Shown here piece by piece: positions 11,252-47,400 of a stretch of 64,000 bases of DNA. Source of the DNA: Candidatus Cloacimonadaceae bacterium (GTDB lineage: Bacteria > Cloacimonadota > Cloacimonadia > Cloacimonadales > TCS61). A program made the translations under genes and the position numbers. Numbering within the stretch: the first letter of the stretch is position 1; the number at the start of each line of letters is the position of its first letter. The stretch lies in NCBI GenBank assembly GCA_942491655.1, contig CALOBL010000015.1, positions 2,046 through 66,045 of the forward strand, read 5' to 3'. Below the pieces are notes generated by a model that was not told the DNA's origin, did no database searches, and worked only from the letters and a program-made list of their open reading frames with translations.

Positions 11252-11261
11252 ATTTGCCCCC

Positions 11262-27401: not shown

Positions 27402-29190
27402 AGGCTGGTTGAAATCTGCAGCGAGATTTTCATTTTGTCATTTTCCTGTAACCAGCCGCTGATTTTGCTCTGGACTTTAATTTTTTTTAGAAACGCTACA
27501 CTAAGTAATAGATTGTAATATATATCGTTGCCGGAAAGAACAGCGCTGCACATTGCCCCGTCCACATCATATTCATAAAGGTATTCCAGAATCTCGGTAT
27601 CGAAACAAGCTAGCTGGAATACACATTTCAGTTTATCATCCTGGTATTTTATCAGCTGTGAAAAGAGCGCCCCATTTTCATATAAATTTTCCTGATGAAG
27701 ATAGTCAGAGACAAATTCCAGACGAGATCTTAACCTTATTTTTCCTATAATTTTATCCCAGTCGAAACGCATAACGGTTTGCCTGAGATCTCTTATCCTG
27801 CCTTCTTCAAGTGTAATATACTTCTCTTTGTTTCTGAATCTTACCTGACCACTTAAAAAATTCTTTATCAGGAAGCTTCACAGCTGCATTTCAGCATAAT
27901 TTCATTACCGGTCACAGGCATTTTTTCCAGATAAGAAGTTTCAGGTAATCTCCAGATATCCATATAGAAATTTAATTTTAATCCTGCGAAGGAAGAAGCA
28001 GTAATCCCGTAATAGAAGCCTTCTTCATTGGGAAAATTGCTTCTGGCTGAAAAGGGATTACCATGCCAGGCTGGGAGATCTTTAGCATATTTACGGAAAA
28101 TTACTTGCTGTCTGATACTCTTTGTTACGAAACTAAATGAGCTCAGAATTCCTGTACAGCCATTGGACCAGACCAGTTCTGTTTTCAGGGGAAAGAGATT
28201 TTTCCATAGCTCCAGACAAAAACCAATTGATCTAGTCCTGCTTTTCTTCTCTTCATCCGCAAAAGAATGATCAAATTTCTGCTGCAGCATACCGAAATTC
28301 ATACTGTGATTTTTCCATTCCAATTCCGTGAATAAACCCCAGATTGATTCTCTAACATTATTTTTTTCTTTAAGATCATAATTAAGCCCTGTTTCGTTGA
28401 ATGATGTTATTTTGCCTGATTCAAGATTAGCACTAAGAGCAGACTGTGAAAAAAAAGGTATAAACTTTAAAAAACCGAATTTCAATTGAGCACTGCATCC
28501 TTCCAATGCCCAGCTCTCGTAAGCACTCCTGTAAGGAGCAATTGTTGTTCTGATCCGGAGGAGATTTCCTGCTGCATTGATATTCTTACCACTGCCAAGT
28601 TTTGACTGCATTAATATGCCGAGCCCATAATAGAGCTGGTATTTCCCGACGATGATCTTCTCTAGGGGGCCCTGATCTTTCAACTGAATATAATAGGAAT
28701 AAAAATCCAGAAGATTGGATTCCATCTCATCTTTTTGAGTAATGAAACCGGCTTCCAATCTTCCCCTGCTAAAGATATGTTTTGAATAAAATTTCAGGCA
28801 TGAACTGTGTTCAAGTTCAGAACGCTTTAATTCTCCTCTTACAACACTCAGGAAACTGATTTCAGGCTTAGGTGAAAAGACAATGTAATCTTCCATTTCA
28901 TCCAGTGTGAATTCATCGATGCCAAGCCTGATTAACTGCTTTCTGCCTTTAATCAACCGGGTTGTGCGATAACTTATTATATCTTTGATCTGAACTTCAC
29001 TGAGCCAGGGCAGGAGCTGCAGGTCGGAGAAAGATGCAGTATTAATATTCAGGGGAGCGGTTTTAAACTGGATCAAAACGGGATTCATTTGGTTCTCATC
29101 AGAGACTGTTTCTTCATTCCAGGAAGTGTTCAATGGTAGAGTAAACAGAACCAGAATTATCAGGAATAGCTCAGTTGCCGGGTATTTCAT
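27398..29190 (-). CDS. ComEA-like HhH domain fused to a probable outer-membrane beta-barrel (one gene, frameshift near 27870)
   Basis: PLNINTASFSDLQLLPWLSEVQIKDIISYR (HhH), then amphipathic beta-strands. The frame of ORF 27398-27772 is open back to about 27875, where ORF 27868-29190 stops. Confidence 0.65.
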
Positions 29191-30142: not shown

Positions 30143-30176
30143 AAAAAAAAGAGGGAATTAGAACAATTCCCTCTTT
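30143..30176 (-). terminator. Terminator after the sugar ABC ATPase gene
   Basis: 12-bp stem AAAGAGGGAATT/AATTCCCTCTTT followed by a U-tract on the minus strand. Confidence 0.8.
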
Positions 30177-30191
30177 AAAATATAGCTGTAT

Positions 30192-31284
30192 TTAAATAGT
30201 TAATTCTGTTTTGGGATCAAAGAAATGAGCTCGATTCATATCCAGGGATACAGTGATCTTTTCATCACGTTTTGGCAGACGTTTAGGATCGAAGCGAGCA
30301 ACAAATTTAGATTTGTTTGTTTCCAGGAATACGATGAATTCATTTCCCATCGGTTCAACAACATCACAGATAGTTTCAATCTTTTGAGGAAATTCTGCCA
30401 TGGCATCGAAATCAGCATCATAAATATCTTCCGGACGTATCCCCAGGATAATGTCTGAATCAATGTACTGCTCCAGTTCCGGTTTTGATTTGACCGGGAT
30501 ATTCAGTTCCCCGTCTGTAAAGATTAGTTCTTTTTCTTTTATCAGTTTTCCTTTGACGATATTAATTGCCGGACTGCCCAGGAAGCTGGCAACAAACAGG
30601 TTGATCGGGTTATTGTAGATCTCCAACGGAGCTCCGATCTGATGGATCTCTCCATCTTTCATGACTACTATCCTGTCCGCCATGGTCATTGCTTCCACCT
30701 GATCATGTGTTACATAGATAATAGTTGTATCAAGCTTCTTGTGAAGTTTTATGATCTCCGCTCTCATCTGCACCCGCAATTTAGCGTCAAGATTAGATAA
30801 GAGGTTCATCAAAAAGGAATACTTTGGGTTTTCTTACGATAGCTCTGCCCAATGCTACTCTCTGCCTTTGTCCACCGGAAAGCTGCTTGGGTTTTCTATC
30901 CAGCAGATGGTCTATTTCCAGAAGATCGGCAGCTTCTTTAACAGTGGCATCTATTACATCTTTCTTTTCTTTTCTTAACTGCAGAGCAAAAGCCATATTA
31001 TCGTAGACGGTCATGTGAGGATATAAAGCATAATTTTGAAAGACCATGGCAATATCTCTGTTTTTGGGTGGAACGTCGTTAACAACCCTATCACCGATTA
31101 TGATCTCACCGGAAGTTATACTTTCCAGGCCTGCGATCATTCTAAGGGTAGTTGTTTTACCACAGCCCGAAGGACCAACTAAAATTACAAATTCTTTGTC
31201 CTCAGCTGTGATATTTGCTTTTTTTACAGCTACGAATCCATTATCATAAATCTTTACAATGTCTTTGATCAATACTTTTGCCAT
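30192..31284 (-). CDS. msmX: MsmX/MalK-family sugar ABC transporter ATPase (frameshift near 30797)
   Basis: [29 protein letters not shown]|[24 protein letters not shown]-terminal TOBE domain. Confidence 0.88.
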
Positions 31285-31365: not shown

Positions 31366-33285
31366 TTATTTTTTTTCTTCATTTTTAATTATAAGCATTT
31401 CAATAATGAATAAAATAAGTACGGAGATAAGTAGATATTTCCAGATCTCAAAGCCATATCTTGATTGCAGGATCTCCTTCTCCCAATCTCTATCCACTAT
31501 CTTAATGCCTTTATTTTTTTCAAGCTCCAGCCTTTGCAGAGAGCTTTCTTTATAATCCAGATTTACAGCAACAGGTTTGTTGTCAAAATAGTAAATTCCC
31601 GGGGAATTTACAAAATATCTGTCCTGATTCCAAAGGATCTTATTACCGTCAGGAAGAATAATCTCTTTATCATTTATTTTGAATCTGTCACCCGTAACAT
31701 ATGTCGCATTCAAACTCAGATCCGAGAGCATAAATTGAAGACAGTTATAGGTAAGGACAGGAAAGGCAGAATCAACCAAAAAAGGATTACGCAGGTCAGC
31801 TATATCAAAGAGCCAGAGTATTTGACGATCAGTTTCCAGGATTAATGGGTTGTCACCAGCCTGCATCAGAATATCTGAGTCGGCTTTCACTGACCAGATT
31901 CTGCCGAATTCTATATCTTTCTTATCCCGGAACAAAGCCGTTATCGGATGGTAAGGATTTATAAAGGTGGTGACGATCTTTTTGTTATTGTCCACAAATT
32001 CCTGAAAAGAGACTGGGAATAAGCCGGAAAGTTTTTCCTGCCATTGAGCATCTAAAGCAGGGTCTGCAATGTACAGGATGCCCTTGCCATTTTGCTTTAA
32101 TTGATCAGTCAGCAGCGATAAGCGGGATTTATACTGTTTGTTGTAGACAATGTAGTTATCAAAAGGCTCCAGATCAGTGTAATTCAGATCATTCCTGTTG
32201 AATAGCTTGATGTTGTCAGAACTACCTGCATAGATCTCCAGTATTGTATACAAAGAGATCGGCAATTCAGGCAAATCGGTTAAAACAGCTATCCTGGGTT
32301 CCGGATTATAGAAATAAGTGAAGTAATTCCGGTTATCATACATAAGGCGTTCGTTCTTTAATTCTACAAAGCCTGTGTACCATCCTGCTTCATCAAAGCT
32401 GACCTCGAAACTGGAAGTCTTTCTCTGAGCAGGATTCAGATTAATTACTTTTTCTGCGACTTTGTGGCCGTTCAAGGTGAGGCCAACAATGATGTCATCC
32501 TGCTTGATCTCAGAATGGTTCATTAACTCAAAACTGATCTTACGAAGGCTTTTATTGCCGACAATTTCGTTTACTACGGAAGAGTTTTCACAACTTATGT
32601 TCACCTTGCTTTCAACTTCCATCCCGGAAGCGATCAGAAAGGTAGGAATTTCCATTTTCTCTGGAAGCGGTTGTTTCTGCAGATCGGTTAATACATAGAT
32701 TTCCTGGTTGGGAAGATGACTCTCCTGCAGCTTCTCTGCTGCCAATTCTATGACTTCCTGCAGAGGTGTTATAACCGCAGAGATCTCAATTCCCTGAATC
32801 AGATCCAACGGAAGTTTTCCATATCTGAGACCTCCCTGCAGATCATTCCAGCTTTTATTCAGTGTCAGAACTATGGTTATGTCATTCTCAGAAAGGATCT
32901 CATTTATTTCACCGGCTGTTTCCTTAGCAATCTCCAACTGGGTCCTTGTGTCTACCAGATAATCCATGCTGTAGGAATTATCTATAATCACTGCAATAGC
33001 AGTCCTGGGATGAGATGTTCCCCTGGAAAGATAGGGAGACCGGATTGAAGGTCTTGAAATGGCCAGAACAGTAAACAGAATGATCAGGATGCGGATAATA
33101 AGCAGCAGAATATTTTTAAGATTAATTTTCTTCCTCTGCTGTTTCTGGCTTAATTTTATAAACTTGATCGAACTGAAGATGATCTTCTTTGGTTTCTTCT
33201 TGGCAAATAAATATATTAAGATCGGGATCAGAATAGCTGATGCAAGAAATAATATTCCTGAATTGAGAAAAGAAAGACTAAACAT
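31366..33285 (-). CDS. BatA-domain / vWA-like membrane protein
   Basis: N-terminal PILIYLF...IIFSSIKF...LLLIIRILII...ISRP (BatA); IIDNSYSM MIDAS-like motif; C-terminal WKYLL TM segment. Confidence 0.8.
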   Translation of the reverse strand: MFSLSFLNSGILFLASAILIPILIYLFAKKKPKKIIFSSIKFIKLSQKQQRKKINLKNILLLIIRILIILFTVLAISRPSIRSPYLSRGTSHPRTAIAVIIDNSYSMDYLVDTRTQLEIAKETAGEINEILSENDITIVLTLNKSWNDLQGGLRYGKLPLDLIQGIEISAVITPLQEVIELAAEKLQESHLPNQEIYVLTDLQKQPLPEKMEIPTFLIASGMEVESKVNISCENSSVVNEIVGNKSLRKISFELMNHSEIKQDDIIVGLTLNGHKVAEKVINLNPAQRKTSSFEVSFDEAGWYTGFVELKNERLMYDNRNYFTYFYNPEPRIAVLTDLPELPISLYTILEIYAGSSDNIKLFNRNDLNYTDLEPFDNYIVYNKQYKSRLSLLTDQLKQNGKGILYIADPALDAQWQEKLSGLFPVSFQEFVDNNKKIVTTFINPYHPITALFRDKKDIEFGRIWSVKADSDILMQAGDNPLILETDRQILWLFDIADLRNPFLVDSAFPVLTYNCLQFMLSDLSLNATYVTGDRFKINDKEIILPDGNKILWNQDRYFVNSPGIYYFDNKPVAVNLDYKESSLQRLELEKNKGIKIVDRDWEKEILQSRYGFEIWKYLLISVLILFIIEMLIIKNEEKK

Positions 33286-34136
33286 AAATCTCCAAATTAC
33301 TGTAAATTTTCCTGCCCAGGAAATAAAATGCTATACCGCAGAATATTCCGACAGGAGTATCTATGAAATAATGATAATGACAATATACCGTTGAAATACT
33401 CAGTAGTATTGTTGCCAGAATCATGAACCATCCCAGCAGTTTGTGATACTGAAATGAAGCCACAGTAACTGCCGTTGCCACTGCAACATGGGAGCTTGGT
33501 ATCGCTCCACCCCAATGAGTAGTATTATTATAAACTAATGCCATTATCCGGGTGAATAAACCATAACGATATTCTCTGGATAAGGTCAGAGTTATATCCC
33601 AGAACCGGCCTCCAACGACCGGAATAAAATAGTAAATTATATAGCAACTGTAAAAAACAAAAGAGATTATAAAAAAGTACCTGTAAAAATTATCTCTGTT
33701 TTTGAAGTAGAAAAGCAGGCCAAGACCCACTATCATCAGGTAAAAACTTAAATACCAGAAATGAAAGAATTCCTGTAAAAAATAACTGCTGAATCTGGTT
33801 CCCCATTCTAATGCAGGTTGATAGCCGAAAATGGCTTGTTCAATTTTGTGTATATGAAGATCCCAGTACCCATGCCAGAGAATCTGGTTCATCTGAGTAG
33901 CAGATGCAAATAAAAATCCCCAGATAAACAGTGGATACCAGTGATACAACGGTACTAGGATTTTTAATTTTTTGGGAATATTTTGAGAGTAATAAAATCA
34001 TCGTTGTAATTATCAGATTCCCGAAAAAAATATCGAAACTATTCTCCAGTCTGTTCCAGCCTATAAACAGGAATATAGTACTTATTAAAAGGTATCCAAA
34101 TGTTAAAATATCAAGCGGTTTGTATAATCTTACCAT
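33278..34136 (-). CDS. PAP2-superfamily membrane phosphotransferase, AUR1/IPC-synthase-like (frameshift near 33950)
   Basis: ORFs 33840-34136 plus 33278-33949; multi-TM; GAIPSSH and HYHYFID catalytic-type motifs. Confidence 0.75.
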
Positions 34137-34140
34137 GTTG

Positions 34141-35268
34141 TTAATCGATCTTGCTCTCCAGGATCCTGTACCTTTTGTGTACCTCTCCGCCTAGATGCAG
34201 AGCTATTTTATTCATCATTTCATTATTTTCCAATACCCAGGAAAGTTCAGCATTTTTTATTTTTAGCTGCTTATGATTATTTGCTGTTTCAAAGGTCTTT
34301 GTGTAAAATACTGTATCGATTCCCCTTTTCTGATATTCTTTAATCACACCCATGGTGATGATCCTTAAACCTGTAATTTTATTCCTGTAAAGCAGTGCTT
34401 TAATAAATCCAAATGGAAGAAGTTTCCCTTTCAGATGTATCAGAACCTGATTATAATCCGGCAAAGCAACATAAAAACCTGCTGGTTTCCCTTCCACATA
34501 GGCTAAATAAAAGAACTCCGGTCTTACAACATCTATTACCTGATCAATTTCATGCTGAAACTCTTTTTTGGTAGCAGGAACAAATCCCCAGTTCTTTTCC
34601 CAGGCTTTGGAATAAACCGTGAAAACTGTTTCCAGGTCTTTCCTTAACTTCTTTTTATTGGTCGAAAGAGGGCGTACTATAAAATTTCCTCTTTTCTGCA
34701 GTCTTTCAGTAAGACGAAGCAGTTTTTCCGGAGTCGGTCTGTTGGGAAGCAGATAAGCCAGTAGATCCATGCTCTTTGACATACCCCAGTTCTCCAGCAA
34801 TTTTAGATAATAAGGTGGATTATGGGTCATCATAATAAACGGAGATGATTCAAAACCCTCAACCAGCAGACCGCATTCATGGTTAGTAGAAAGATTCATG
34901 GGACCCCGCATGGCATCACACCCTTTGTTTCGCAACCACTCCTGAGCTGTACTTAGTAATGCATCTGCAGCATCCTGATCATTTGTACATTCAAAAAAAC
35001 CAAAAAATCCGATCTTGTCATTATGGAATTTATTATGCTGAGTGTTGGTGTGAGCAGTTATTCGCCCGACAATTTCACCTTCCTTCAGTGCCAGGAAGAG
35101 TTGTACTTCCGAATGTTCATAATAGGGATTTTTGGCTGGATCGAAATATTTTTTCTGTTCGAAAATCAAGGGAGCTACCCAATAAGGGTCATCTTTATAA
35201 AGTTTGAATGGAAATTTTATAAATCTGACCAGATCTTGTTTGTTCTTAACACTCTTTATTGTTATCAT
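34141..35268 (-). CDS. YghO/bCerS-like double-GNAT acyltransferase, copy 2
   Basis: FIKFPFKLY..DP.WVAPL, GFFGFFEC, MRGPMN, CGLLVEGF, ELSWVLENN; 375 aa. Confidence 0.75.
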   Translation of the reverse strand: MITIKSVKNKQDLVRFIKFPFKLYKDDPYWVAPLIFEQKKYFDPAKNPYYEHSEVQLFLALKEGEIVGRITAHTNTQHNKFHNDKIGFFGFFECTNDQDAADALLSTAQEWLRNKGCDAMRGPMNLSTNHECGLLVEGFESSPFIMMTHNPPYYLKLLENWGMSKSMDLLAYLLPNRPTPEKLLRLTERLQKRGNFIVRPLSTNKKKLRKDLETVFTVYSKAWEKNWGFVPATKKEFQHEIDQVIDVVRPEFFYLAYVEGKPAGFYVALPDYNQVLIHLKGKLLPFGFIKALLYRNKITGLRIITMGVIKEYQKRGIDTVFYTKTFETANNHKQLKIKNAELSWVLENNEMMNKIALHLGGEVHKRYRILESKID

Positions 35269-36399
35269 TTAATTACCTTCTATTGAAATGTCATACATCC
35301 TGTAGGTTTTATAAATATCAGCAGTAAGTGTTTTAGCTATTTTATTCATCATTTCATTGGTTTCCAGAACCCAGGAAAACTCAGCATCTTTATAGGGATT
35401 CTTATGATTTGCAGCTGTTTCAAATGATTTGCAGTAAAAAACTACATCAATACCCCTGTTCTTATATTCATCCAACACGCCCATAATGGGAACTCGCAGG
35501 TTGGGAATTTTATTTAGATTCAGCAGGAGTTTCAGCCAGCCGAAAGGAAATATTCTTCCTCTCATTTTTTGTAAAATGTAATTATAATCCGGAAGAGTTA
35601 CGGACATTCCCACCGCTTTCTCATCAATTTCTGCAATGTAAACAAATTCAGGTCTGATGATTGGCATCAGCTTATCTACGATCATATCAAATTCCCGGGG
35701 AGAACAGGGGACATAACCCCAATTGTCTTTCCATGCTTCCTCGTATAAATGATAGATCTTCTCAATGTCCGAACGTAATTTTTTCCTGTTCTTGGAAGAT
35801 AATGCCCTTATCGTGAAGTTCCCCCTGGCTTCAATCTTTTTTGCCAGCCTGTTCAATCTCTCCGGAGGTGGTTTAACGTCAACATGATAGGCATAAAGAT
35901 CCATGACTTTCATCAATCCGTAGCTTTCGTACAGTTTTATATAGTATTCAGGATTATAGGTCATCAGCAGCATAGGAGGTGAATCAAATGCATCTATCAG
36001 TAATCCGCATTCATCATTAACGGAAAAATTGGCTGGACCCCTCATGATTGTCATTCCTTTTTCCCTCAGCCAATCTCTGGCCGAATCGAATAAGGTATCC
36101 GCTGTTTTCTGGTCATCAATACATTCAAAAAATCCGAAAAAACCTACTTTATCATGATGGACTTTATTGTGTTGTGTGTTAGTGTGAGCAGAAATTCTGC
36201 CGATAATTTTATTATTCTCAATTGCCAGAAAAAGCTGAACTTCCGAATGCTCGAAATAGGGATTTTTCTTTTTATTGAAGAAGTTCTTCTGATCCATTAT
36301 CAACGGGGCGACCCAATTGGGATCATTTTTGTATAGTTTAAAGGGAAACTTGATGAATTTATTCAGCAATTTTCCGGAATCAACTTTAATAATTTCCAT
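35269..36399 (-). CDS. YghO/bCerS-like double-GNAT acyltransferase, copy 1
   Basis: Same motif set as copy 2 (GFFGFFEC, MRGPAN, CGLLIDAF, EFSWVLETN); 376 aa; tandem paralogue. Confidence 0.75.
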   Translation of the reverse strand: MEIIKVDSGKLLNKFIKFPFKLYKNDPNWVAPLIMDQKNFFNKKKNPYFEHSEVQLFLAIENNKIIGRISAHTNTQHNKVHHDKVGFFGFFECIDDQKTADTLFDSARDWLREKGMTIMRGPANFSVNDECGLLIDAFDSPPMLLMTYNPEYYIKLYESYGLMKVMDLYAYHVDVKPPPERLNRLAKKIEARGNFTIRALSSKNRKKLRSDIEKIYHLYEEAWKDNWGYVPCSPREFDMIVDKLMPIIRPEFVYIAEIDEKAVGMSVTLPDYNYILQKMRGRIFPFGWLKLLLNLNKIPNLRVPIMGVLDEYKNRGIDVVFYCKSFETAANHKNPYKDAEFSWVLETNEMMNKIAKTLTADIYKTYRMYDISIEGN

Positions 36400-37025
36400 T
36401 ATATTTCTCCTAATTTTTTTGAAACAAAATAATTCATGATACCCATTAGGATGGCTGCCAGGAACATTTTTGCCAGGAAATCTCTACCACCCGCAAAAAA
36501 GAAATTAACAAAGGGTGTAAGCATAACGATCATATACTGGGAAAACCTGATCTGGTTGAAGAAAATTACCAGGATGAAGGCCAGGAAACAGACAATGATG
36601 GTGGGCCAGGGTGCAAAGAATAATGTGAAACCTATATAAATAAATATTCCTCTTCCACCTTTAAATTTGTGTGTAAGCGGTAAACAATGGCCAATTATCA
36701 TGGAAAATCCAATTACAAGCAGGTGGTTTTGGGTGGTGATCTCGTTCAGACCGGGTATTATTGCTGTTAATTCCGCTGAAAAAAGGATAATCTTAAGAAA
36801 TGCCAGATAGAAAAAGATCTTTCCTACATCCAGTATTCCTGTAAATATACCTAACGCTTTATCAATATTATTATAAATATTAAGCGTGTCCGGATGGCCG
36901 GTGCCGATTTTGTAAATGTTAATGTTTTTATAATATTTCGCCAGAAGCTTGGCAGTGGAAAAGCATCCCAGAAAGTAGGAAACTAAAACTAGAAATATCA
37001 TGATCAAGGTTGATTGCATATTCAT
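36399..37025 (-). CDS. Divergent PlsY-family membrane acyltransferase
   Basis: YFLGCF, DVGK and GH..P....FKGGRG recognisable; motif 1 altered and motif 3 (HxxN) missing. Confidence 0.7.
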   Translation of the reverse strand: MNMQSTLIMIFLVLVSYFLGCFSTAKLLAKYYKNINIYKIGTGHPDTLNIYNNIDKALGIFTGILDVGKIFFYLAFLKIILFSAELTAIIPGLNEITTQNHLLVIGFSMIIGHCLPLTHKFKGGRGIFIYIGFTLFFAPWPTIIVCFLAFILVIFFNQIRFSQYMIVMLTPFVNFFFAGGRDFLAKMFLAAILMGIMNYFVSKKLGEI

Positions 37026-37030
37026 TCCTT

Positions 37031-37720
37031 TTAATTGACTCTGGGGCCAAACAGGGCGCTGCCGATCCGCAGAATATTTGCTCCTTCCTCAATTGCGATC
37101 TCATAATCGCCGGACATACCCATCGATAAAAATTTCATCTCACAATTTGCCTGTTTCAGTTTCTTCATATTAAGAAAGATTTCATGCAGTTTTCTAAAGC
37201 ACTTTCTGATCTTGGCTTGATCCGAAGTGAACATTCCGATCGTCATTAACCCCAGGATCCTGATATTAGCCAGTGTTTTTGCCCTAAGAATAAAGCTTTC
37301 TGTAATATCGGGCTGAATCCCGAATTTACTTTCTTCACCTGATGTGTTCACCTGGATTAGAACATTCACGGTTATTCCATTTTCAATGGCCAGCTGATTG
37401 ATTTTTTTTAAAGTGGAAAAGGAATCAATTGAATGAATAAGATCTGGCTTTAACTGCATAAGCTTCTTTACTTTATTGGATTGCAAATGTCCTATAAAAT
37501 GAAATTGTTTATAATTCTCCTGAAGATAAGGTATTTTGGCTTCTGCTTCCTGAACTTTATTTTCGCCAATTATAGAAATACCGGCCTTTAGAGCAAGGTT
37601 GATCTCTTCGATCGAGCGGGTTTTTGTTACTGCCAGCAGCAATATCTCCGCTGGGTTTCTATCTGTTTTTGCGCAGGCAGCTTCAATCCTTTTCATTATC
37701 TTCAAGTTTATTTTTTCCAA
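37031..37720 (-). CDS. yggS: PLP homeostasis protein YggS/PlpBP
   Basis: LLAVTKT, GENKVQE, HFIGHLQSNKVK, LSMGMSGDY..AIEEGA..LRIGSALFG. Confidence 0.95.
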   Translation of the reverse strand: MEKINLKIMKRIEAACAKTDRNPAEILLLAVTKTRSIEEINLALKAGISIIGENKVQEAEAKIPYLQENYKQFHFIGHLQSNKVKKLMQLKPDLIHSIDSFSTLKKINQLAIENGITVNVLIQVNTSGEESKFGIQPDITESFILRAKTLANIRILGLMTIGMFTSDQAKIRKCFRKLHEIFLNMKKLKQANCEMKFLSMGMSGDYEIAIEEGANILRIGSALFGPRVN

Positions 37721-37874: not shown

Positions 37875-40800
37875 TTATTTCATCATGATCATCTTACGAG
37901 TACCGGAATAATCAGCAGTCTGTAATTTATAGAAATAGATGCCTGTAGTTGCCGTTCTGCCGGAATCGTCTTTGCCATCCCACTCAATAATATGTGTGCC
38001 GGCATTCATTTGTTCTGCTTTAAGAGTTCTTACCAGCTGTCCCTTCAGATTATAAATATTCAGCTGAGTAAATCCCTCTTCTTTCAGATTGAAATGAATT
38101 TTAGTAGTTGGATTAAAGGGATTCGGATAATTATTGATCAGATTTGTGACCAGTGAAGGTGTTTCATTGTCCGAAAAACCTGTACCGGCTTCATAAGCGT
38201 TGTTAGTTCTGCACAGATTTCCCTTAAACGTTGCCCAGGCGATATCTTCGTCAGCAACTGGATGATTGTAGTCTATGGCATAATATCCATACTGGTTCGG
38301 TAAAACGATCTCTACATCCCCGTCCCCGTCAAGGTCTGCAATAGCTGGACTTACTTTCAGAGAATTATCCAGGTCGATAGGGAAGTTTACCGTTTCAGAA
38401 CCCGAGATATCATAGGAATGAAGATAGCCGAAATTATCACCGAAAACAATTTCAAAAGTACCATCGTTGTCCATGTCTGCTATAATCGGTGTAGAATCAA
38501 CAGATTGTTCTACATCAACCGGGAAAGGTCCAATATCGGTACCGGTATTATCAACAACATAGACATCCCCGGAATTTGAAACCAGAATGATATCATTGTT
38601 ACCATCTACATCAATATCTGCAACAACAATACCACCTTTGATGATACAACCCAGATCGCGTATAAATATATTACTGCCATCATGATTGAAAGCCATCAGG
38701 TTTCCATTGGAAATGCCAACGATCACTTCTGGTTCATCATCTGCATCAATATTTGCAATAGTCGGGCCCTGATAAGTATTGGAGCCAACATCCACCGGCC
38801 AGCCGGCTATATTGTTTCCTGTAGCCGAGGAAATTGCATACAAGCTACCGGATATGGAGGAAGCTAACAGTTCCAGGTTGCCATCACCATCCAGATCTGC
38901 CGCTGCCGGAGAAGATAAGATCCCGGTTGAACTAAGTGTTGCCGGGAAGTTAGTGAAATCTGTACCATCATGGTTGAGCACATATACCTGAGCATTCGGT
39001 ACAAAGGTAAATGCTACGATCTCCAGTGCACCATCTCCATTTACATCCACGATCATGGGGTTGCCTTTAATCTGACTTCCAGTGGCATAAGAAAAAATTA
39101 CATTTCCTGTGTTATCAATAGCAAAAATGTTGCCGCCTTCATTAGCTGCTACGATCTCAAGATTGCCATCACCATCAATGTCAGCTATTGCTGCCGCTGC
39201 ACTGAATATTCCGCCCAGATCAAGTGGGAAAGGTGCATCTTCTGAAGCATCAGGATTTAATACATGCAGCATGCCATTGAAATCAGCAAAAATTGTCTCT
39301 TTCTGACCATCCTCATCTATGTCTGCTAAAGCGGCAGCAGAATTTGTCGTGCCACCCAGGTTTAAAGGCCAGCCTGTTTGAAAGTAACTTAATGTAGCTG
39401 TAATTTCGTGAGTTACAATATAAGGGAATTCACTTTCAGGGTTTGCTGTAATAATTACAGTTAAAGGGATCAGCTGAACGTTTGTGTCTTCCGGTGTAGT
39501 AAGCATTATGGGTGAGTCAGTATTCCAGTGCGATCCTGCCTGGTAAATTACCGGAACATTGAAAGTCTCTGAGCCATCTAAAAAAGTAACTTCCGATTCA
39601 GTTGTACTTACTGTTACGGTTACATCGTCTGCCTGAGCCCAAAGGCCACCGGAAAACCAGTTATTCCAGATATTAAGTTCAAGATTGCAGATCTCTCCCG
39701 GATTTGGTTCACCGTCTCCGTCACCTTCACTCTCATAAAAATGAAAATCCTCAATTGTTAGATTAGGAATTAGATCATACATGGCAGCCTGATAGGCATT
39801 CACGCGACCCGTACCCAATAAGCCGGCATAATCAGGATTAATATCGTTTATATTATCTGTAGTCATTTCTATTCTGGCTTTTAATTCCAGTCCGCATAAT
39901 TCCGGATGTGCACTCATAACAAGTGCTGCCAGCCCAGAAACAATGGGTGATGACATCGATGTTCCCTGATAAGAAGCATATCCGGAGCCATCGATAACGG
40001 TTGATTTGATATTGACTCCAGGTGCACTAACATCAATAGCAGTACCCCAGTTGGAAAAGTAAGCGATCTCATCTGCCTGATCCGTTGCTGCAACACACAT
40101 AGCATTTGTACAGTCATTGGGATACGAAGGGTGTACGTCATTACTCCAGGTATCATTACCGGCAGATCCAACTACCAGAGCACCTGCATCTGTTGCATAA
40201 TTCACAACATAATTTGCAGTTGTTGCATTTCCTGGACCACCCCAGCTGCAGTTTATAATATCTGCACCAGTATCAGCACAGTAGATAATTCCGTCATAGC
40301 CATTGGATATAGTAGTGCCTGCAACTGAACCTCTGTGAGTAGATACCAGGATACTGGCTGTAAAAGATGAACCGGAAACTCCAACTGCATTATCACCGAC
40401 TGCTGCAGCACAACCCGCAACATGTGTACCATGATCATTCCCCGGATTACTCTGGTAGGATTGATTATTATTGTAATAGTGATTCCAGCCTAAACAATCA
40501 TCTACCTCACCATTCCCGTCATCATCATAACCATTACCACCGGAGATTGCGCCAGTTTCCCAGTTGATGGTCATGGTATTTCCACCATAAGTTGTGGAAT
40601 TTAATTCAGCTTCATTTACCCAGATATTGTCCATCAGATCTTCGTGAGTCCAGTATACACCGGAATCAACGATCCCAATGATAACGTCATGGCTTCCAGT
40701 AATCCAATCCCATGCACTGGGACATTCAATCTGTGGTAAATGCCATTGCTGCGGATATTGTGGATCATCAGGAGTATATCTGATACGGTTGATACCTTCA

Positions 40801-41189
40801 TATTCTGCATAAATTATGTCACTGTTTTTGGCTAACATATCTAGTGCAGTTTCAATATTGTCGTTATTTTTTAAATGAATTCTGTAAATATTCTGCAGAT
40901 AAACACCATCTTCATTCCAGTCCTTGTATCTAACACTGCTGATGAATCTTGTCAGGTCCACGATCTGAAGTGTTTCAGCCAGAATATCAAAATTCTGATC
41001 CCCAGTAACTACCAGTCCGTCAATTATATTATAATCCAGAATGCCGTCATTATTTCCGACAAAGTCTTTGCTGAAAGCAGCGATTATTATATTGGATTCA
41101 TAATTATCCGGATCAAAAGCGACTACATCACCCAGAAGTGTGATAGTGCCGAAAACAATTAAAAACAGTAAAAAGATCCCCCGTTTCAT
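37875..41189 (-). CDS. Secreted S8 (subtilisin-like) protease with FG-GAP propeller and T9SS-type/FlgD C-terminal domain
   Basis: Triad IVDSG / DHGTHVAG / GTSMSSP; eight DxDxDG-type repeats; NYPNPFNP...RKMIMMK CTD. True start is likely ATG 41189 (AGGAG RBS), not 41237. Confidence 0.88.
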   Translation of the reverse strand: MKRGIFLLFLIVFGTITLLGDVVAFDPDNYESNIIIAAFSKDFVGNNDGILDYNIIDGLVVTGDQNFDILAETLQIVDLTRFISSVRYKDWNEDGVYLQNIYRIHLKNNDNIETALDMLAKNSDIIYAEYEGINRIRYTPDDPQYPQQWHLPQIECPSAWDWITGSHDVIIGIVDSGVYWTHEDLMDNIWVNEAELNSTTYGGNTMTINWETGAISGGNGYDDDGNGEVDDCLGWNHYYNNNQSYQSNPGNDHGTHVAGCAAAVGDNAVGVSGSSFTASILVSTHRGSVAGTTISNGYDGIIYCADTGADIINCSWGGPGNATTANYVVNYATDAGALVVGSAGNDTWSNDVHPSYPNDCTNAMCVAATDQADEIAYFSNWGTAIDVSAPGVNIKSTVIDGSGYASYQGTSMSSPIVSGLAALVMSAHPELCGLELKARIEMTTDNINDINPDYAGLLGTGRVNAYQAAMYDLIPNLTIEDFHFYESEGDGDGEPNPGEICNLELNIWNNWFSGGLWAQADDVTVTVSTTESEVTFLDGSETFNVPVIYQAGSHWNTDSPIMLTTPEDTNVQLIPLTVIITANPESEFPYIVTHEITATLSYFQTGWPLNLGGTTNSAAALADIDEDGQKETIFADFNGMLHVLNPDASEDAPFPLDLGGIFSAAAAIADIDGDGNLEIVAANEGGNIFAIDNTGNVIFSYATGSQIKGNPMIVDVNGDGALEIVAFTFVPNAQVYVLNHDGTDFTNFPATLSSTGILSSPAAADLDGDGNLELLASSISGSLYAISSATGNNIAGWPVDVGSNTYQGPTIANIDADDEPEVIVGISNGNLMAFNHDGSNIFIRDLGCIIKGGIVVADIDVDGNNDIILVSNSGDVYVVDNTGTDIGPFPVDVEQSVDSTPIIADMDNDGTFEIVFGDNFGYLHSYDISGSETVNFPIDLDNSLKVSPAIADLDGDGDVEIVLPNQYGYYAIDYNHPVADEDIAWATFKGNLCRTNNAYEAGTGFSDNETPSLVTNLINNYPNPFNPTTKIHFNLKEEGFTQLNIYNLKGQLVRTLKAEQMNAGTHIIEWDGKDDSGRTATTGIYFYKLQTADYSGTRKMIMMK

Positions 41190-41218
41190 TGAAAACTCCT
41201 TATTAATTAATTTTTTAT

Positions 41219-41254
41219 AAAAAAGGAAGGTATGCAAGATTCATACCTTCCTTT
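41219..41254 (-). terminator. Terminator between the 951-aa secreted protein gene and the S8 gene
   Basis: 13-bp stem AAAGGAAGGTATG/CATACCTTCCTTT followed by a U-tract on the minus strand. Confidence 0.78.
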
Positions 41255-41269
41255 ACTTTAAATTAGCGA

Positions 41270-44125
41270 TTATTTCAAGAGGATCATTTTCTTAGTGATC
41301 TTCTCTTGTGAATTATTCAGGGTGTAATAATAAATTCCTGAAGTAACTGCGTCACCCTCGGCATCAGTACCATCCCAGAGAAGATTCATTTCCCCAGCTT
41401 CCAGATATGTATCCAAAAGAACTTTTACAAGTTGGCCTTTGGTGTTGTAGACTTTTATGGAAGTATTTCCCGCTGCTGGCAGAGAAAAATGGATATTCGT
41501 AACAGGATTAAAGGGATTAGGATAATTGGAGAGAGTAATTATGTTTCCTGGAATATCGTTATCATTTGTGCCAACATTAACATCTTCTACAATGGCTCTG
41601 ATCATTAAATTACCTTCATCCAGAACTTCCCATGAACCACTTGCATCTGTATAGGAATTACCTGAACTGCCAGTGTCAAGACCAATAGGTGACTGACTGG
41701 CGATCTCCAGGATACCCACATAAAAATCACCATCAGAAAATTCTTCCTGCTCGGTTTCCGGGATCATCAATGTATTCCAGCCTGCTTCTATTGAGCCGGA
41801 AATAGCAAATTGAGAGATAAAAGCTGCACCAGGCATTCCATTATCTCCATTATCATCAAAGATCCTGAAAATGGTAGTACCAGGTACCAGTGTTTCAACA
41901 TAGAATTGTACCAGCTTAACATTGATCGGTCCATTATCGTAAGTTGGTGAGTAGCGAACAACCATATGTCTGCCCTGTCCACAATTATATCCGTCTTCCG
42001 CACCACCATCATCAAAGTAAAGCAGATCTTCATGGCTACCCAGAACATAGGCGGTAGCTTCATTGGAATTTGCAGAATCATATCCGTCATAAATGGCTGT
42101 TACTACATAATAATTGAATTCACCCGAAGTCGGATCTGTATGAACATAAGTCGGCTCATTGCTTACTTCAACTTCTGCTATTTGATCGTATGGTCCTTCA
42201 GAAGTAGGAGAATGGAATACGTGATATCCCTGTAACTCTCGGGTTCTTGTTGTTGGAAGTTCCATGATTGTGCCGTCTGCAGCTGTTACATACCCTTGAA
42301 GCAGCCAGTTATAATTAAAATCACCACTGTAATCTGAAAAACCAGTACCTTGACTGAGGTATAAGCCAGCTACTGATGGACCTGAATCGTATCCTGCAGA
42401 ATATCCACCAGGATCAGATGGTTCAGTCTGGTTAATATAATAACCGACCCAGAGTTCTTCACCTAACTCTATTGTGACCGGAGTTGTTAGGTCTACTTCA
42501 TTCCATTCTTCTGGAACTGGATTTACGATATCTTCTTCTGACATTAAGTCGGATGCCATGGCTCCAGTCCAGACTCTTACGGAATAATCAGATGTAGTTG
42601 AAGTTCCCGGGATGAATTTCACGGTAGTCAACTCACCACCTACGTAAGGCATCATATCGGAAGCTGTAAATCTGCTGGCAACATACCATTCGCCTGCTGC
42701 GTTTAAACCGATCGAGCCGGCATATGTGCCATTATCCCAGCCTATCCAGCCTTCTTCTCCACCAAGTTCCGATGGATCCCAGGTTAATTGCACATCATTA
42801 TTGGGTAATGTTTCAGCTGTAAGATTCTCCGGTGCAGGGCCTAAAAATATTGTATTGTAAACTCTGAAGTCATCAATGAATAATCCAGTACCAACTCCAC
42901 CATCATCATTGTCATCAGTCAGATTTTTAAATTTGATCTGAACTGTCTGTCCGGCCCAGTTTGAAATATCACATGTACCTGTTTGCCAGCCGAAAGTATT
43001 CAGCGCATATTCCTGATCGATAAGAGTCCATACAGAAGCAACTCCACCCACATCGGGGCCATTAAAATTATAATGCAGTCTAGTCCAGGCCACTTGATCA
43101 ACACCTTTTACGTAAACATGGTATAGGTCTTCCAGTATACCATCAACATCATTATCTCCATCTGAATCGAGCATGTCACAATAAACCCAGTAATCAATAA
43201 AAATCTCTACTTCAGGAAGATCAGGAAGAACGATCTCAGGAGAGATAAGTTCGTCATCAAGATTGTTGTGAACAGTACAACGCATTGCATTATCGCCACT
43301 ATGTGGATTAGTTGTATCCAGAGTCCAGTAATTACCGGAAATGGAACCGGCATAACCTGGAATCATCTGATCGTCTCCTGCTGCGCCATCACCATCGCTG
43401 TAAAAAATGTCTGCTACATTAATATCATCTACCCTGATTCCATAGAATTCAGGATTACTTGCAGTATCAACAGCGGGATCAGAAGCAAAGGCAAATCTGA
43501 TCTTAACATTCTGCCCGGCATAAGCTGAAAGGTCAAATTCAGCATCAAGCCAGCCGTTTGAAACATCGCCCCAGCCCGGTACGTTAACTCCTTCCAGGAA
43601 TTCATAACCAAAACAGTACATGGAAGTACCATTATAAGCGGGTGTTCCACTGATAACAGTCCAACTGGATCCGCCATCAGTTGAGATTCTTACGTTACTG
43701 CCGTCCCAGCCGTTGTAGTCGCCAGTTCCACCTAATTCTTCCACATTCCAGTCGACCTTAAAGGTTAAAGTGGGACTGTCTGTCGGTAGGGTAAGTTCAG
43801 GTGTATCAAGCACAACATATCTATGGCTCAAATAACCACCCAGCTCTTCGTCACCCATCCACCAGGAATTGCCTTCCCAGGCACCAACAGTGGAAAGATG
43901 CCAGTTTTCGTCCCAGTCGTCAGGAGCTGTGGCATCAACAAATTGCCAGTCTCCCTGTCCTGATTCAAAATCATCTTCGAAAATGATATTCTCTTCATCT
44001 CTTGTTGAATTAGCTTTTTCAATAGAAATTGGACTGCCCAGGCCCTGATTGCTCTGAAGATCTGTTTCAGCTGTTAAACTGAAGATCAATCCAGAAATGA
44101 ATAAAAAACTAATTAATTTTCTCAT
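41270..44125 (-). CDS. Secreted 951-aa beta-sandwich protein (MAM/immune-inhibitor-A-like modules, FnIII-like segments, CTD)
   Basis: Signal peptide; FEDDFESG..W, GxxIDD module ends, APENL...LTW / GYHVF...YYVVTA; NYPNPFNP...KKMILLK. No catalytic motif recognised. Confidence 0.75.
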   Translation of the reverse strand: MRKLISFLFISGLIFSLTAETDLQSNQGLGSPISIEKANSTRDEENIIFEDDFESGQGDWQFVDATAPDDWDENWHLSTVGAWEGNSWWMGDEELGGYLSHRYVVLDTPELTLPTDSPTLTFKVDWNVEELGGTGDYNGWDGSNVRISTDGGSSWTVISGTPAYNGTSMYCFGYEFLEGVNVPGWGDVSNGWLDAEFDLSAYAGQNVKIRFAFASDPAVDTASNPEFYGIRVDDINVADIFYSDGDGAAGDDQMIPGYAGSISGNYWTLDTTNPHSGDNAMRCTVHNNLDDELISPEIVLPDLPEVEIFIDYWVYCDMLDSDGDNDVDGILEDLYHVYVKGVDQVAWTRLHYNFNGPDVGGVASVWTLIDQEYALNTFGWQTGTCDISNWAGQTVQIKFKNLTDDNDDGGVGTGLFIDDFRVYNTIFLGPAPENLTAETLPNNDVQLTWDPSELGGEEGWIGWDNGTYAGSIGLNAAGEWYVASRFTASDMMPYVGGELTTVKFIPGTSTTSDYSVRVWTGAMASDLMSEEDIVNPVPEEWNEVDLTTPVTIELGEELWVGYYINQTEPSDPGGYSAGYDSGPSVAGLYLSQGTGFSDYSGDFNYNWLLQGYVTAADGTIMELPTTRTRELQGYHVFHSPTSEGPYDQIAEVEVSNEPTYVHTDPTSGEFNYYVVTAIYDGYDSANSNEATAYVLGSHEDLLYFDDGGAEDGYNCGQGRHMVVRYSPTYDNGPINVKLVQFYVETLVPGTTIFRIFDDNGDNGMPGAAFISQFAISGSIEAGWNTLMIPETEQEEFSDGDFYVGILEIASQSPIGLDTGSSGNSYTDASGSWEVLDEGNLMIRAIVEDVNVGTNDNDIPGNIITLSNYPNPFNPVTNIHFSLPAAGNTSIKVYNTKGQLVKVLLDTYLEAGEMNLLWDGTDAEGDAVTSGIYYYTLNNSQEKITKKMILLK

Positions 44126-44326
44126 AATAAACTCCTCCTTGCTTTTATAGTTTGCTTTTTGAAAAATAATTGCTCACCAATTTTGTCAAATGTTTTAAAT
44201 CAAATAGTAACTTGCATATTTTCTTAAAAAGCAAGTCTTTCAGTTTTATTGGATTTATTAATTAGTTGAATGTTACCGGAGAAAGTCTGGCTTAATGGTT
44301 TTCATGTTAGTTGTATGAAACATATC

Positions 44327-44362
44327 AAAAAAACAGGCCCTGATCATAAAACCAGGGCCTGT
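44327..44362 (-). terminator. Terminator after the 2025-aa protein gene
   Basis: 10-bp stem ACAGGCCCTG/CAGGGCCTGT followed by a U-tract on the minus strand. Confidence 0.8.
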
Positions 44363-44421
44363 CTAAACTCTTAAATCAATAGTTTAATAACTATTTCATC
44401 AAGATTTATCCTGTGAAAAGA

Positions 44422-47400
44422 TTATTTCATCAGGATCATTTTCTTAGTAGAAGTATATCTTCCAGCTTTCATCTTGTAGAAGTATACACCACTAGATACT
44501 GTATTGTTGTTATCGTCTGTTCCGTTCCACTCTTCAGTATAGTAATTAGCTTCTCTGAATCCATCAACAAGAGTTTTAACTTTTTCACCCTTGATGTTGT
44601 AGATTTCAATGTTCACCACACCAGGTTCGCTGACTGCGAATTTGATCTTGGTGACAGGATTGAATGGATTCGGATAGTTGCCGGAAAGTTCTGTAACTAC
44701 CGGGATGATTGGATCACCAGCATCAACAACATCAACTTCTATTACATTAGATGGAGATGATTCACCGGTCGGATCTTCATAAAGTGCTGTAATGTAGTAT
44801 TCATGAAGTCCACCTGGTACTGCTGCATCAAGGTAGAATGTACCGGAAGGATTTCCGATCACGATTCCGTCTCTGTAAACGTTGTAACCCGTAAGTTCTC
44901 TGGTTGTACCAACGAAATGATCTTCTACATCAATTGAGATCTTTTCACCGGATCTTCCAGATCTATTAGCAGGAATTACAGGATCAACAGTAACTGGAGA
45001 AAGTTCAGATATTCTGCCGTCACCATACTGTACTACTGCACGAAGCAGATATGCTTCACCCCATGTAGCCCAGCCTCCGGTATCGGCATGATCCCAGCTT
45101 CTGCCGTTATCCAGATTAGTATCATAGCTCATGTAAGTGTCAGCGTTGATTGAACCGAATGTGACCATGAAATCTCCATCGACCATCAGATTTTCAGCTG
45201 AAATATCGATGGTGTTCCAGTCATCTGTAGCAACGTCTGTGACCAGTTCCTGATAAAGCATGTCTTCTGTCGGTGCTGTATCCCAGCCCCAGACTTCTGC
45301 ATTGAATCCTGAACCCGCAGATGTATGGATCTTCAACTGGAGTATCTGGCAAGACTGTTCAGGACTCATCTGAGTACCCATACTGTAGCCTTCATAACTA
45401 TAGGCTCCTGTACTTACATCATTATCGTAGATCAGTTCTACTGTTTCACCGGTTGGTGGGGCTGGTGCATCCCACTGCAGTACTACGTTCGGATTTGGCG
45501 GGTTGTATGTTGCAGCAAGGTTGCCAGGTGCCCAGAATGCAGGTGAAAGTTGAACGTCATATTCAACCACATCATCCTGTACAACTGTTACGGTTCCGTT
45601 AAATACATTATAGCCATCCAGGGTTACAGTTACAGACATTTCACCCGGATCTGTAATAAGACTATAAGAACCATCAGCAGCAGTTTCGTCTGAGGCTCCA
45701 CCAATAGCAACAAGTGCACCTTCTAAAGGATCACCTGTATCGCTTCTGGTAACAATACCTTCAACTGTACCGACAGCTGTCGGAATAAGTTCTGCTACAG
45801 CTCTGAAATGGTAGTCAGAGAAACCATCCAGTGCTGCCCAGCCTGTTCCATCAAAAGCGAAAGAGTTAGGCCAGAAACCAGGTTGAGTTATAGTACAGTG
45901 AACTACACCATATTCTCCACCTGTATTAGCAAGGAAACCAATGTAGAAATTACCCTGTATGTCTGCCAGGTCATCTGCATAAGGTCTCAAGTCAATACGA
46001 GTCATTGCACTGGTATTGGTATAACTTGCTTCAGGACTAACTATAAATGGAGTGATCAGGTCAGCGCCCGGTACTCCACCATTATCGGCCCAAACATGGA
46101 ATTCAAAGTCATCATTGTCCTGTCCGGACTGGTCAGTATAGTTCCTGATCAGAGCATAAGCCAGGTTCAGCTGGAATCCAGCTGGATTATCTATTCTTAC
46201 AGCAGCACCGGTTCCTTCCGTAATGGTAGTATAGAAGTCAACTATACCATTATCATAAATGAAAGGTGTACCAGCGATATAAACAAATCCGTCCATCATA
46301 CCAACATTGCTGTTTTCAGAAGCATCTGTAGCTTCGATAGCATAATCAACCTGTACACCGGCATCCTGAGCTGGAATTGTAAAGGTATAAACATTACCAT
46401 CTACAGAAGTATAAGGAGCAGAAATAGCATCGCCTTCGTCAAGAGTATAAATTACGTTTGCTTCAGCGATACCTGATACATCATTGATCACTGCAGTAAA
46501 TACATAATCATCTGCAGTTCCTTCATAGAATGCAGGTCCATTATGAATAATAAATGGAGCAGCTGTATCTTCCATGGAAGTAGTAACCAGAACATCATCT
46601 ATGTACATACCGTTAATTTCAAAACCACCATCAGTTTCCAGTCTGAATCTTAACCAGACAGTTTCATAACCGGCTCCAACAAATCCGCCCAGAGCGATCT
46701 CTTCCTGTACGAATTCTGTCATGTCCTGAATATCATAAGTTTCCAGGTTAAGCCAGGTTTCACCATCGGTGCTGATCTCAGCATACATATAATCGAATGC
46801 TGTCTCAATATCACACATATACCAGTATGAAAGTGTAGCATTCAATACACCGGAAAGATCCCATGGTGTGGCCAGAGTTGCACTGATATTAAGATTGGCT
46901 GCATAGTTGCCGCCAGGACTGTCATGCAGTGAGTTAGATGGAGAATGTGATTCTTCATCTGTAACTGCCCAGGTTCCTTCCAGAGTCCAGTTACCTGAAC
47001 CTGATTCAAAGTCGTCTAAGAAGTAAATGTCGCCGCCGCCACCAGGAATCAGGGCGAAGTCTACTACTGCAAGACCACCGTCTGTTATTTCTACGGCAAC
47101 AGGATCAGCAGCATTATATGTTGTAGCAGAGCAATTAACATTATAATCACCAACCAGCATACCTTCAATCAGATAATAACCGGTAGCATCTGTAGAAGCG
47201 CCATAAGGTCCTGCTGTAATAACAGCACCTGCAATTGGCTCACCAGATTCTGAATTAGTAACAGTTCCTTCCAGATCACCGAAAGCAAGAGTAGCTGTAA
47301 CTTCATTAGAACCTGCTGATTCACCCATATGCCATACAGCTGTTACATAGTAGGTGTAGGTTCCTTCAGACACACCAAGATCATCATAATATAGGTCTGC

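Follow-up and report, generated by a model that had tools for sequence, protein, structure and literature searches.

A conserved Cloacimonadota operon as a candidate for the downstream half of a bacterial sphingolipid pathway

How bacteria make sphingolipids was established as late as 2021-2022, and the enzyme class that produces the phosphoethanolamine- and phosphoglycerol-ceramides of bacteria is poorly defined. The Cloacimonadota, an uncultured group whose lipids serve as biomarkers, abound in anoxic waters and digesters. In Sphingomonas wittichii, Swit_3900 is the serine palmitoyltransferase gene (spt, product Spt) and Swit_3908 is the orthologue of the Caulobacter bacterial ceramide synthase (bCerS) CC_1154/CCNA_01212, with 45% identity at 97% coverage (table in PMC11324152). 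As regards headgroups, BT_1522 of Bacteroides thetaiotaomicron is an AUR1 homologue needed for phosphoinositol-dihydroceramide (PMC9246714). Ding and collaborators described Spt-like genes in 33 Black Sea metagenome-assembled genomes (MAGs) of Cloacimonadota and listed these as potential sphingolipid producers. They found no genes for bCerS or ceramide reductase (CerR) within ten open reading frames (ORFs) of those Spt-like genes, proposed either rearrangement or non-homologous replacement, and left a gap in which bCerS and CerR were "possibly replaced by non-homologous proteins" (Ding et al. 2024, PMC11334938). Here we describe a gene cluster in a stretch of 64,000 nucleotides from a Candidatus Cloacimonadaceae bacterium (contig CALOBL010000015.1; this whole 64-kb stretch is hereafter called the window) that holds, between yggS and a BatA-like gene, a divergent PlsY-family gene, two genes for GNAT proteins of the bCerS family and the gene of an AUR1-like PAP2_3 protein.

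We consider it probable that one transcription unit in the window encodes the later steps of sphingolipid synthesis in an uncultured Cloacimonadota bacterium (close homologues carry the names Candidatus Cloacimonetes or Cloacimonadota), which would make the organism a candidate for phosphosphingolipid synthesis by a partly new route. This reading draws directly on family memberships, folds, conserved residues and synteny, as well as on an Spt fusion and on Spt/CerR co-clustering in relatives. The operon is real and conserved, and what it would represent is a candidate new variant of the known sphingolipid pathway. It shows where bCerS homologues of Cloacimonadota are located, which addresses the gap left by Ding et al. 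2024, and it fits their rearrangement option, with bCerS homologues present in a separate operon. In it, these homologues are joined by a candidate ceramide phosphotransferase that is AUR1-like yet comes from neither Bacteroidota nor eukaryotes, and the PlsY paralogue of the operon, with a changed acceptor pocket, points to an undescribed acylation step. Because the lipids of Cloacimonadota are used as biomarkers, a concrete gene set suited to heterologous expression is useful. The first-pass annotation of the window knew of no report of this kind for the lineage. That holds only in part, since Ding et al. 2024 already listed the 33 Cloacimonadota MAGs as potential producers.

The cluster and the features that follow it are listed below, in the order of transcription and with coordinates in the window.

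37031..37720, minus strand: yggS, encoding a pyridoxal phosphate-binding protein of the YggS family (TIGR00044), which heads the conserved cluster
36399..37025, minus strand: PlsY-like gene, encoding a divergent PlsY-family membrane acyltransferase (PF02660, 82 bits)
35269..36399, minus strand: GNAT-A, paralogue A of the bCerS-family tandem-GNAT N-acyltransferases, 376 aa
34141..35268, minus strand: GNAT-B, paralogue B of the bCerS-family tandem-GNAT N-acyltransferases, 375 aa
33278..34136, minus strand: gene of a putative AUR1-like PAP2_3 lipid phosphotransferase (PF14378), frameshifted
31366..33285, minus strand: gene of a BatA-like membrane protein with an N-terminal double-transmembrane domain and a weak VWA match (PF07584, TIGR02226)
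30192..31284, minus strand: gene of a MalK/UgpC-type ABC ATPase, split, the final gene before the terminator
30148..30176, minus strand: intrinsic-terminator-like hairpin of 13 pairs followed by a T run

From yggS to the BatA-like gene six co-oriented minus-strand genes follow each other at spacings of +5 to -8 nt. A gap of 5 nt separates yggS from the PlsY-like gene, which overlaps GNAT-A by 1 nt; the spacing between GNAT-A and GNAT-B is 0 nt; 4 nt lie between GNAT-B and the first PAP2 ORF; and the PAP2 and BatA-like genes overlap by 8 nt. The first good terminator-like hairpin (30176-30148) comes only after the MalK-type ABC ATPase gene, 3' of the BatA-like gene, and the transcription unit likely ends there. 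All four genes of the lipid cluster that had been claimed within a yggS-BatA operon were found in place, on the minus strand and with near-zero spacing; one correction is that the PAP2 gene does not form a single ORF in the window but lies in two frames. The leading gene belongs to the YggS family with 197.6 bits against a TIGR00044 cut-off of 106.25, and the BatA-like gene is a conserved downstream neighbour of the lipid genes.

The two GNATs are paralogues with 54% identity. Their comparison with bCerS was made via the Sphingomonad orthologue, the gene in the Swit_3908 position of locus L007 (loci and proteins compared here carry L and P numbers), rather than via the Caulobacter sequence itself. 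The S. wittichii Spt sequence of PDB entry 2x8u was used to collect 80 Sphingomonadaceae spt loci, which were screened with a hidden Markov model (HMM) made from Cloacimonadota-type GNATs alone (alignment A1). In about 30 of the 80 loci this HMM matched the gene in the Swit_3908 position, an ORF on the same strand as spt and 4-9 kb downstream of it, with 280-309 bits and E-values of 1e-83 to 1e-92. Locus L007, of which the Spt is 93% identical to the query, has the order CerR-like reductase, acyl carrier protein (ACP), spt, then further on two LptF/LptG genes, a fatty-acid hydroxylase and a 382-aa GNAT; since this layout equals the Swit_3905/3906/3908 arrangement, the GNAT gene was taken as the Swit_3908 equivalent. 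By BLASTP (database size 1e8) GNAT-B is 34% identical to this bCerS orthologue over 381 aa (E 2e-63) and GNAT-A 33% identical over its full length (E 2e-60). Both E-values are well past the limit of E <= 1e-30 at 50% coverage by which Ding et al. defined bCerS homologues (PMC11334938). In a neighbour-joining distance tree of about 110 sequences, computed without support values, the window GNATs fall inside a monophyletic PlsY-linked clade that is nested among Spt-linked and Sphingomonad sequences. GNAT-A and GNAT-B arose, according to this tree, by duplication within the PlsY-linked clade, and GNAT-A groups with orthologues of the "A" copy.

The AlphaFold2 model of GNAT-B (pLDDT 90.6) shows a soluble protein with a tandem-GNAT fold, two GNAT domains and no transmembrane segments, and its best PDB folds are the tandem GNATs 2wpw, 7q3a and 5kf1, with template modelling (TM) scores of about 0.6. 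The family is large, with 8,586 representative clusters at E <= 1e-3. Neither GNAT nor their profile gave a useful match to PDB sequences, in a PDB copy that holds no bCerS structure, and the window GNATs had no match in NCBIfam. The latter carries no weight, because NCBIfam has no bCerS model and the Sphingomonad orthologue matches nothing there either. The bCerS likeness that the first-pass annotation had seen is therefore borne out by E-values of 2e-60 to 2e-63 to the orthologue and by the nesting inside a Spt-associated clade: on sequence, both GNATs belong to the bCerS family, and ceramide synthesis is the activity that this membership suggests for them.

Within the same family, a Cloacimonadota sub-clade (L091-L097; e.g. 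L091 7685-11128) has three tandem bCerS paralogues in a cluster without PAP2_3, the first paralogue being very divergent on a long branch (about 280 against about 670 bits). Protein P0121 (L089 8001-10355) is a bCerS::bCerS tandem fusion of 784 aa, which by analogy suggests that GNAT-A and GNAT-B could pair into a heterodimer. In Sphingomonadaceae, a fatty-acid hydroxylase gene (L007 18227-18991) abuts bCerS upstream, between the LptF/G paralogues and bCerS, and its product probably acts on the amide-linked chain.

The yggS - PlsY-like - bCerS-type GNAT(s) - [PAP2_3] - BatA arrangement also occurs in L001-L004 and L087. Of 80 metagenome loci that were found by scanning contigs with the GNAT profile and annotated with HMMs built for this analysis, 29 have it too. 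Because of this recurrence the arrangement is not due to chance. Among the 29 PlsY-type metagenome loci, 25 have yggS immediately before the PlsY-like gene, 21 have BatA and 19 PAP2_3, and five have two or three GNAT copies. In a further 28 of the 80 loci the GNAT is directly preceded by a Spt-like gene; CerR is also present in 13 of these and PAP2_3 in three, and no locus combines the Spt-type with the PlsY-type arrangement. Two of these Spt-like genes were checked against NCBIfam; the best model was SerpalmtaseCFB, with 578-587 bits, below its cut-off of 640 bits.

The link between the GNAT family and Spt is closest in two Spt::GNAT fusions, P0171 (L005 10001-12343; 780 aa) and P0252 (L090; at least 648 aa). 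The Spt half of the fusion, an alpha-oxoamine synthase of Spt-like type, has the Sphingobacterium multivorum Spt 8guh as best PDB match (E 6e-108) and serine palmitoyltransferase as best NCBIfam model, and GNAT-B is 41% identical to the GNAT half of P0171. On its 819-kb contig (L005), P0171 is flanked by a CerR-like NAD-dependent reductase gene and a PAP2_3 gene, and the latter's product is collinear with Cloacimonadota PAP2_3 (26% identity, E 9e-26). PAP2_3 homologues were found within Spt/bCerS/CerR clusters in L139, L147, L162, L168 and L005. Synteny among relatives, which the first-pass annotation had put forward as a check, hence shows a conserved cluster of which the GNAT and PAP2_3 families elsewhere sit in, or are fused to parts of, Spt-CerR clusters.

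Two further arrangements were seen in this comparison. A second, distinct bCerS clade, seen in L127 (9365-13220) and L131 (9230-13082), is likewise preceded by a PlsY-like gene, though a more divergent one, and followed by BatA; the association of PlsY-like, bCerS and BatA genes must therefore be of greater age or mobility than the Cloacimonadota clade. Between PAP2_3 and BatA, a signal-peptide protein of about 335 aa with outer-membrane beta-barrel character and a weak TraF_2 match is encoded in L002 (12073-13080), L001 (11110-12129) and about 16 metagenome loci. It is absent from this position in the window and may be a lipid-export or outer-membrane partner.

The PAP2_3 gene is broken in the window. 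The frame changes between its first 58 or so codons (from 34136) and its last 223 (33949-33278), the ORF pieces being 34136-33840 and 33949-33278, and the 1-nt frameshift lies near 33961-33973, at or next to runs of five to six A. Removal of one A from the A-run in that region gives a read-through protein of 285 aa which aligns without gaps, at 53% identity, to the intact 285-aa orthologue of the close relative L004; the frame is also intact in L002 and in 60 or more homologues. Other genes of the window are broken as well. The ABC ATPase consists of two ORFs in different frames, matching residues 1-162 and 153-364 of the intact 364-aa L004 orthologue, with one extra base near 30797 that lies outside any homopolymer. 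A 600-aa gene of unassigned function (27413-29190, minus strand) is split in the window and intact in L004. The gene rpoC for the RNA polymerase beta' subunit (7092-11293, minus strand) is distributed over three ORFs (853, 321 and 221 aa) that form consecutive pieces of one Pfam domain (Rpb1_5). Because the essential rpoC and at least three further genes of the window are also broken, the PAP2_3 frameshift is read as an assembly error: it is probably an assembly indel and not gene decay. A real pseudogene was considered as the principal explanation of the frameshift and rejected, since rpoC is broken likewise.

The C-terminal 223-aa ORF alone matches PF14378 (PAP2_3) with 50.4 bits against a cut-off of 27 (E 3e-13). 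The AlphaFold2 model of the read-through protein (pLDDT 95.7) has as best PDB folds yeast Aur1 of the Aur1-Kei1 complex (9ivc_A) and the inositol phosphorylceramide (IPC) synthase-ceramide complex (9vj4_A), both with a TM score of 0.60 over 295-306 columns; PAP2 phosphatases and SMSr score 0.2-0.37 overall (LpxE 0.37, SMSr 0.31, PgpB 0.27). With a profile of 66 homologues the best PDB sequence is again AUR1 (E 7e-7), and this alignment pairs AFPSSH...YCHYHYFID with AFPSLH...LTHHYFVD of AUR1. Within the motifs, P213-S-S-H216, H255 and D259 are invariant in the 66 homologues. The claim of an AUR1-like PAP2 protein with PSxH and H-x3-D motifs is thus upheld by profile as well as by fold.

Pfam scans covered most window ORFs of at least 150 aa, the 2025-aa ORF not being scanned, and found neither myo-inositol-phosphate synthase nor phosphatidylinositol synthase; linkage of both to the phosphotransferase gene, as in the BT_1522-1526 cluster, was not seen. 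Inositol specificity of the PAP2_3 enzyme was therefore rejected, and the headgroup is probably not inositol. Because inositol families are lacking among the scanned ORFs, we call the protein only an AUR1-like ceramide phosphotransferase candidate.

The PlsY-like protein matches PF02660 with 82 bits but reaches only 55.2 bits with the equivalog model TIGR00023 (cut-off 137.2), and its E-value to Aquifex aeolicus PlsY (aaPlsY, 5xj5) is only 2e-5. Residue roles determined for aaPlsY (PMC5700162) were placed on 122 members of the PlsY-like family; Ser142 could not be mapped. The acyl-phosphate-binding "phosphate hole" is conserved, with His92 in 122 of 122 and the glycines of Gly-Gly-x-Gly in 120-121 of 122 members. 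The glycerol-3-phosphate (G3P) pocket (Ser35, Arg45, Lys104, Ser142, His177, Asn180) is not conserved at the five positions that map: Ser35 is Thr in 101 of 122 members, Arg45 is not conserved, Lys104 is Arg in 121 of 122, and His177-x-x-Asn180 is absent, with the C-terminal family motif N-x-x-V-S-K-K-L-G-E in its place. Thr41, which contacts the acyl carbonyl, is Gln, Glu or Leu and never Thr. In aaPlsY, S35T, R45K and K104R each lose 75-90% of activity, His177 is indispensable, and the G3P pocket is described as invariable across 7,288 homologues (PMC5700162). Because the acyl-phosphate site is kept while nearly every G3P contact is replaced, an ordinary PlsY is unlikely. We predict an acyl-phosphate-binding enzyme with a different acceptor, the nature of which we can only infer.

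The PlsY-like family is small and almost confined to Cloacimonadota, and its gene overlaps or abuts the first bCerS gene, always lying immediately upstream of a bCerS homologue. NCBI labels the proteins glycerol-3-phosphate acyltransferase. No canonical PlsY was found among all fetched loci, and the entries listed in the annotation tables of Black Sea Cloacimonetes MAGs include neither PlsY nor Spt.

In the mechanism we propose, a serine palmitoyltransferase with its gene elsewhere in the genome would supply a long-chain base (3-ketosphinganine or sphinganine). The two soluble tandem-GNAT paralogues would N-acylate it to an (oxo)dihydroceramide, maybe as a heterodimer or with differing preferences for acyl chain or acceptor. 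The His-His-Asp triad of the AUR1-like PAP2_3 protein would then move a phospho-alcohol headgroup from a glycerophospholipid to the 1-OH of the ceramide, releasing diacylglycerol and yielding a phosphosphingolipid; because no inositol genes are nearby, ethanolamine or glycerol would be likelier headgroups than inositol. The PlsY-like protein, a PlsY paralogue translationally coupled to the first bCerS gene, may add an acyl group from acyl-phosphate to another acceptor, for instance by O-acylating the sphingolipid or the hydroxy-acyl chain in it. What we infer in this scheme is which substrates and headgroup are used, what the PlsY-like protein does, and that the genome encodes Spt and CerR. 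The two steps of N-acylation and headgroup transfer had been proposed from the outset; they find support in family membership, fold and synteny, although the function is a prediction and the PlsY-like protein is not canonical. It is a doubtful proposal that the PlsY-like protein would be the first acyl-phosphate-dependent acyltransferase of a sphingolipid pathway, or, in a stronger form, that yggS and the PlsY-like gene would fill the very slot before bCerS that belongs to Spt in all other clades, because their products jointly supply or modify the amine substrate in an undescribed manner. Were the stronger form true, the amide lipid route of Cloacimonadota would run via acyl-phosphate and not via acyl-CoA or acyl-ACP.

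Several observations weigh against a sphingolipid pathway. Neither Spt nor CerR nor a dedicated ACP turned up in the window, or in the 10 kb to either side of the 29 PlsY-type loci, and substrate supply consequently rests on the literature and not on this genome. For the window this agrees with the first-pass annotation, which had seen neither Spt nor CerR. The sole Aminotran_1_2 protein of the window (58168-59382) was considered as Spt and rejected, being of the aspartate-aminotransferase type, and the supplement of the Black Sea paper by Ding et al. holds no per-phylum bCerS data. Membership of the bCerS family, moreover, does not fix the amine acceptor. L091-L097 have two or three bCerS copies and no PAP2_3, so that the two functions are separable. 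Foldseek E-values to Aur1 are weak (4e-3), though TM score and coverage are good. Finally, if the frameshift of the PAP2_3 gene were real, the last step of the pathway would be lost in this strain.

The main rival, which we regard as unlikely, is that GNATs of the bCerS family with a shifted acceptor build, with the PlsY-like and PAP2_3 proteins, an amide lipid on a non-sphingoid amine, such as an N-acylated amino alcohol, amino acid or aminoglycerol phosphate, for which Spt is not needed. It would account for the PlsY-linked GNATs forming their own monophyletic clade, for this clade being beside Spt or CerR in 0 of 29 loci, and for the two to three paralogues, which suggest diversified acceptors. 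In the PlsY-like protein, basic and polar residues of the phosphate clamp are altered (Thr, Arg, Asn) but kept and the residues that read the 2-OH of glycerol phosphate are lost, which would fit a phosphorylated acceptor differing at C2. Yet similarity to genuine bCerS is high and extends over the full length, true Spt-bCerS-CerR clusters contain members of the same PAP2_3 family, and Cloacimonadota MAGs carry Spt-like genes (PMC11334938), all of which speak against this rival.

Two other explanations were weighed. In an ordinary glycerophospholipid housekeeping operon the PlsY-like protein would be a divergent G3P acyltransferase, the PAP2 protein a lipid phosphate phosphatase and the GNATs passengers. 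The clear PF02660 match, the NCBI name, the lack of a second, canonical PlsY among the fetched loci and the housekeeping-type genes yggS and ABC ATPase in the same unit are compatible with this, but the reading is weak and in our view very improbable: the otherwise invariable G3P pocket is replaced where even conservative changes are costly (PMC5700162), the TIGR00023 score is far under the cut-off, the PAP2 protein is Aur1-like over its whole length (TM 0.60 against 0.37 or lower for phosphatases), and the GNATs are bCerS homologues whose pairing with PAP2_3 recurs together with Spt. Decay of the cluster in the organism, with a real PAP2_3 frameshift leaving ceramide at most and no phosphosphingolipid, we hold to be improbable. 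The frameshift does lie within coding sequence, and relatives L091-L097 are naturally without PAP2_3; against this, breaks also affect the essential rpoC, with three ORFs sharing a single domain, and at least three other genes that are intact in orthologues, which points to assembly indels. The PAP2_3 break itself is located at or next to runs of A. The downstream half of a sphingolipid pathway, in an imperfectly assembled operon, thus remains our preferred explanation.

Elsewhere in the window, an AbiEii toxin (nucleotidyltransferase) and an AbiEi antitoxin (1382-2993, minus strand) form a type IV toxin-antitoxin/abortive-infection module that is inserted between the EPSP synthase (128-1111) and PrmC (3492-4031) genes, and the latter two look truncated too. 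Upstream of yggS (37875-50499, minus strand) are the genes of three very large secreted proteins (1120, 951 and 2025 aa); an S8 peptidase with FG-GAP repeats is among them, and so is an InhA-like protein. In L004 the orthologues of these proteins have the C-terminal domains FlgD_ig and Por_Secre_tail (type IX secretion).

Compared with known systems, the locus shares families with each and differs from each in composition. The GNATs are of the same family as bCerS (Caulobacter CC_1154/CCNA_01212; S. wittichii Swit_3908; Bacteroides fragilis BF9343_4218), being soluble tandem GNATs of about 375-382 aa of which relatives adjoin or are fused to Spt and adjoin CerR. They differ in occurring as two tandem paralogues (three in some relatives) and in that PlsY-linked GNATs are never beside spt or cerR and always have the PlsY-like gene upstream. 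With PlsY (A. aeolicus 5xj5; Escherichia coli b3059) the PlsY-like protein shares the Pfam family, the seven-transmembrane size, and His92 and the F-K-G-G-x-G loop that hold the acyl-phosphate, whereas Ser35, Thr41, Arg45, Lys104 and His177-x-x-Asn180 are replaced, the score is below the equivalog cut-off and the gene is coupled to bCerS. The PAP2_3 protein is only 17% identical to AUR1/IPC synthase (9ivc, 9vj4; BT_1522), shorter (285 aa) and encoded by a broken ORF, but it belongs to the same PAP2_3 family, its PSxH and HHYFxD motifs align, the fold matches over the whole length, and its family is partnered in genomes with ceramide-synthesis genes. The Spt-bCerS-CerR(-PAP2_3) clusters found in other uncultured bacteria (L005, L139, L147, L168) contain the same GNAT and PAP2_3 families in the same order, GNAT then PAP2_3; there Spt sits immediately upstream of the GNAT, while the Cloacimonadota type has yggS and the PlsY-like gene instead.

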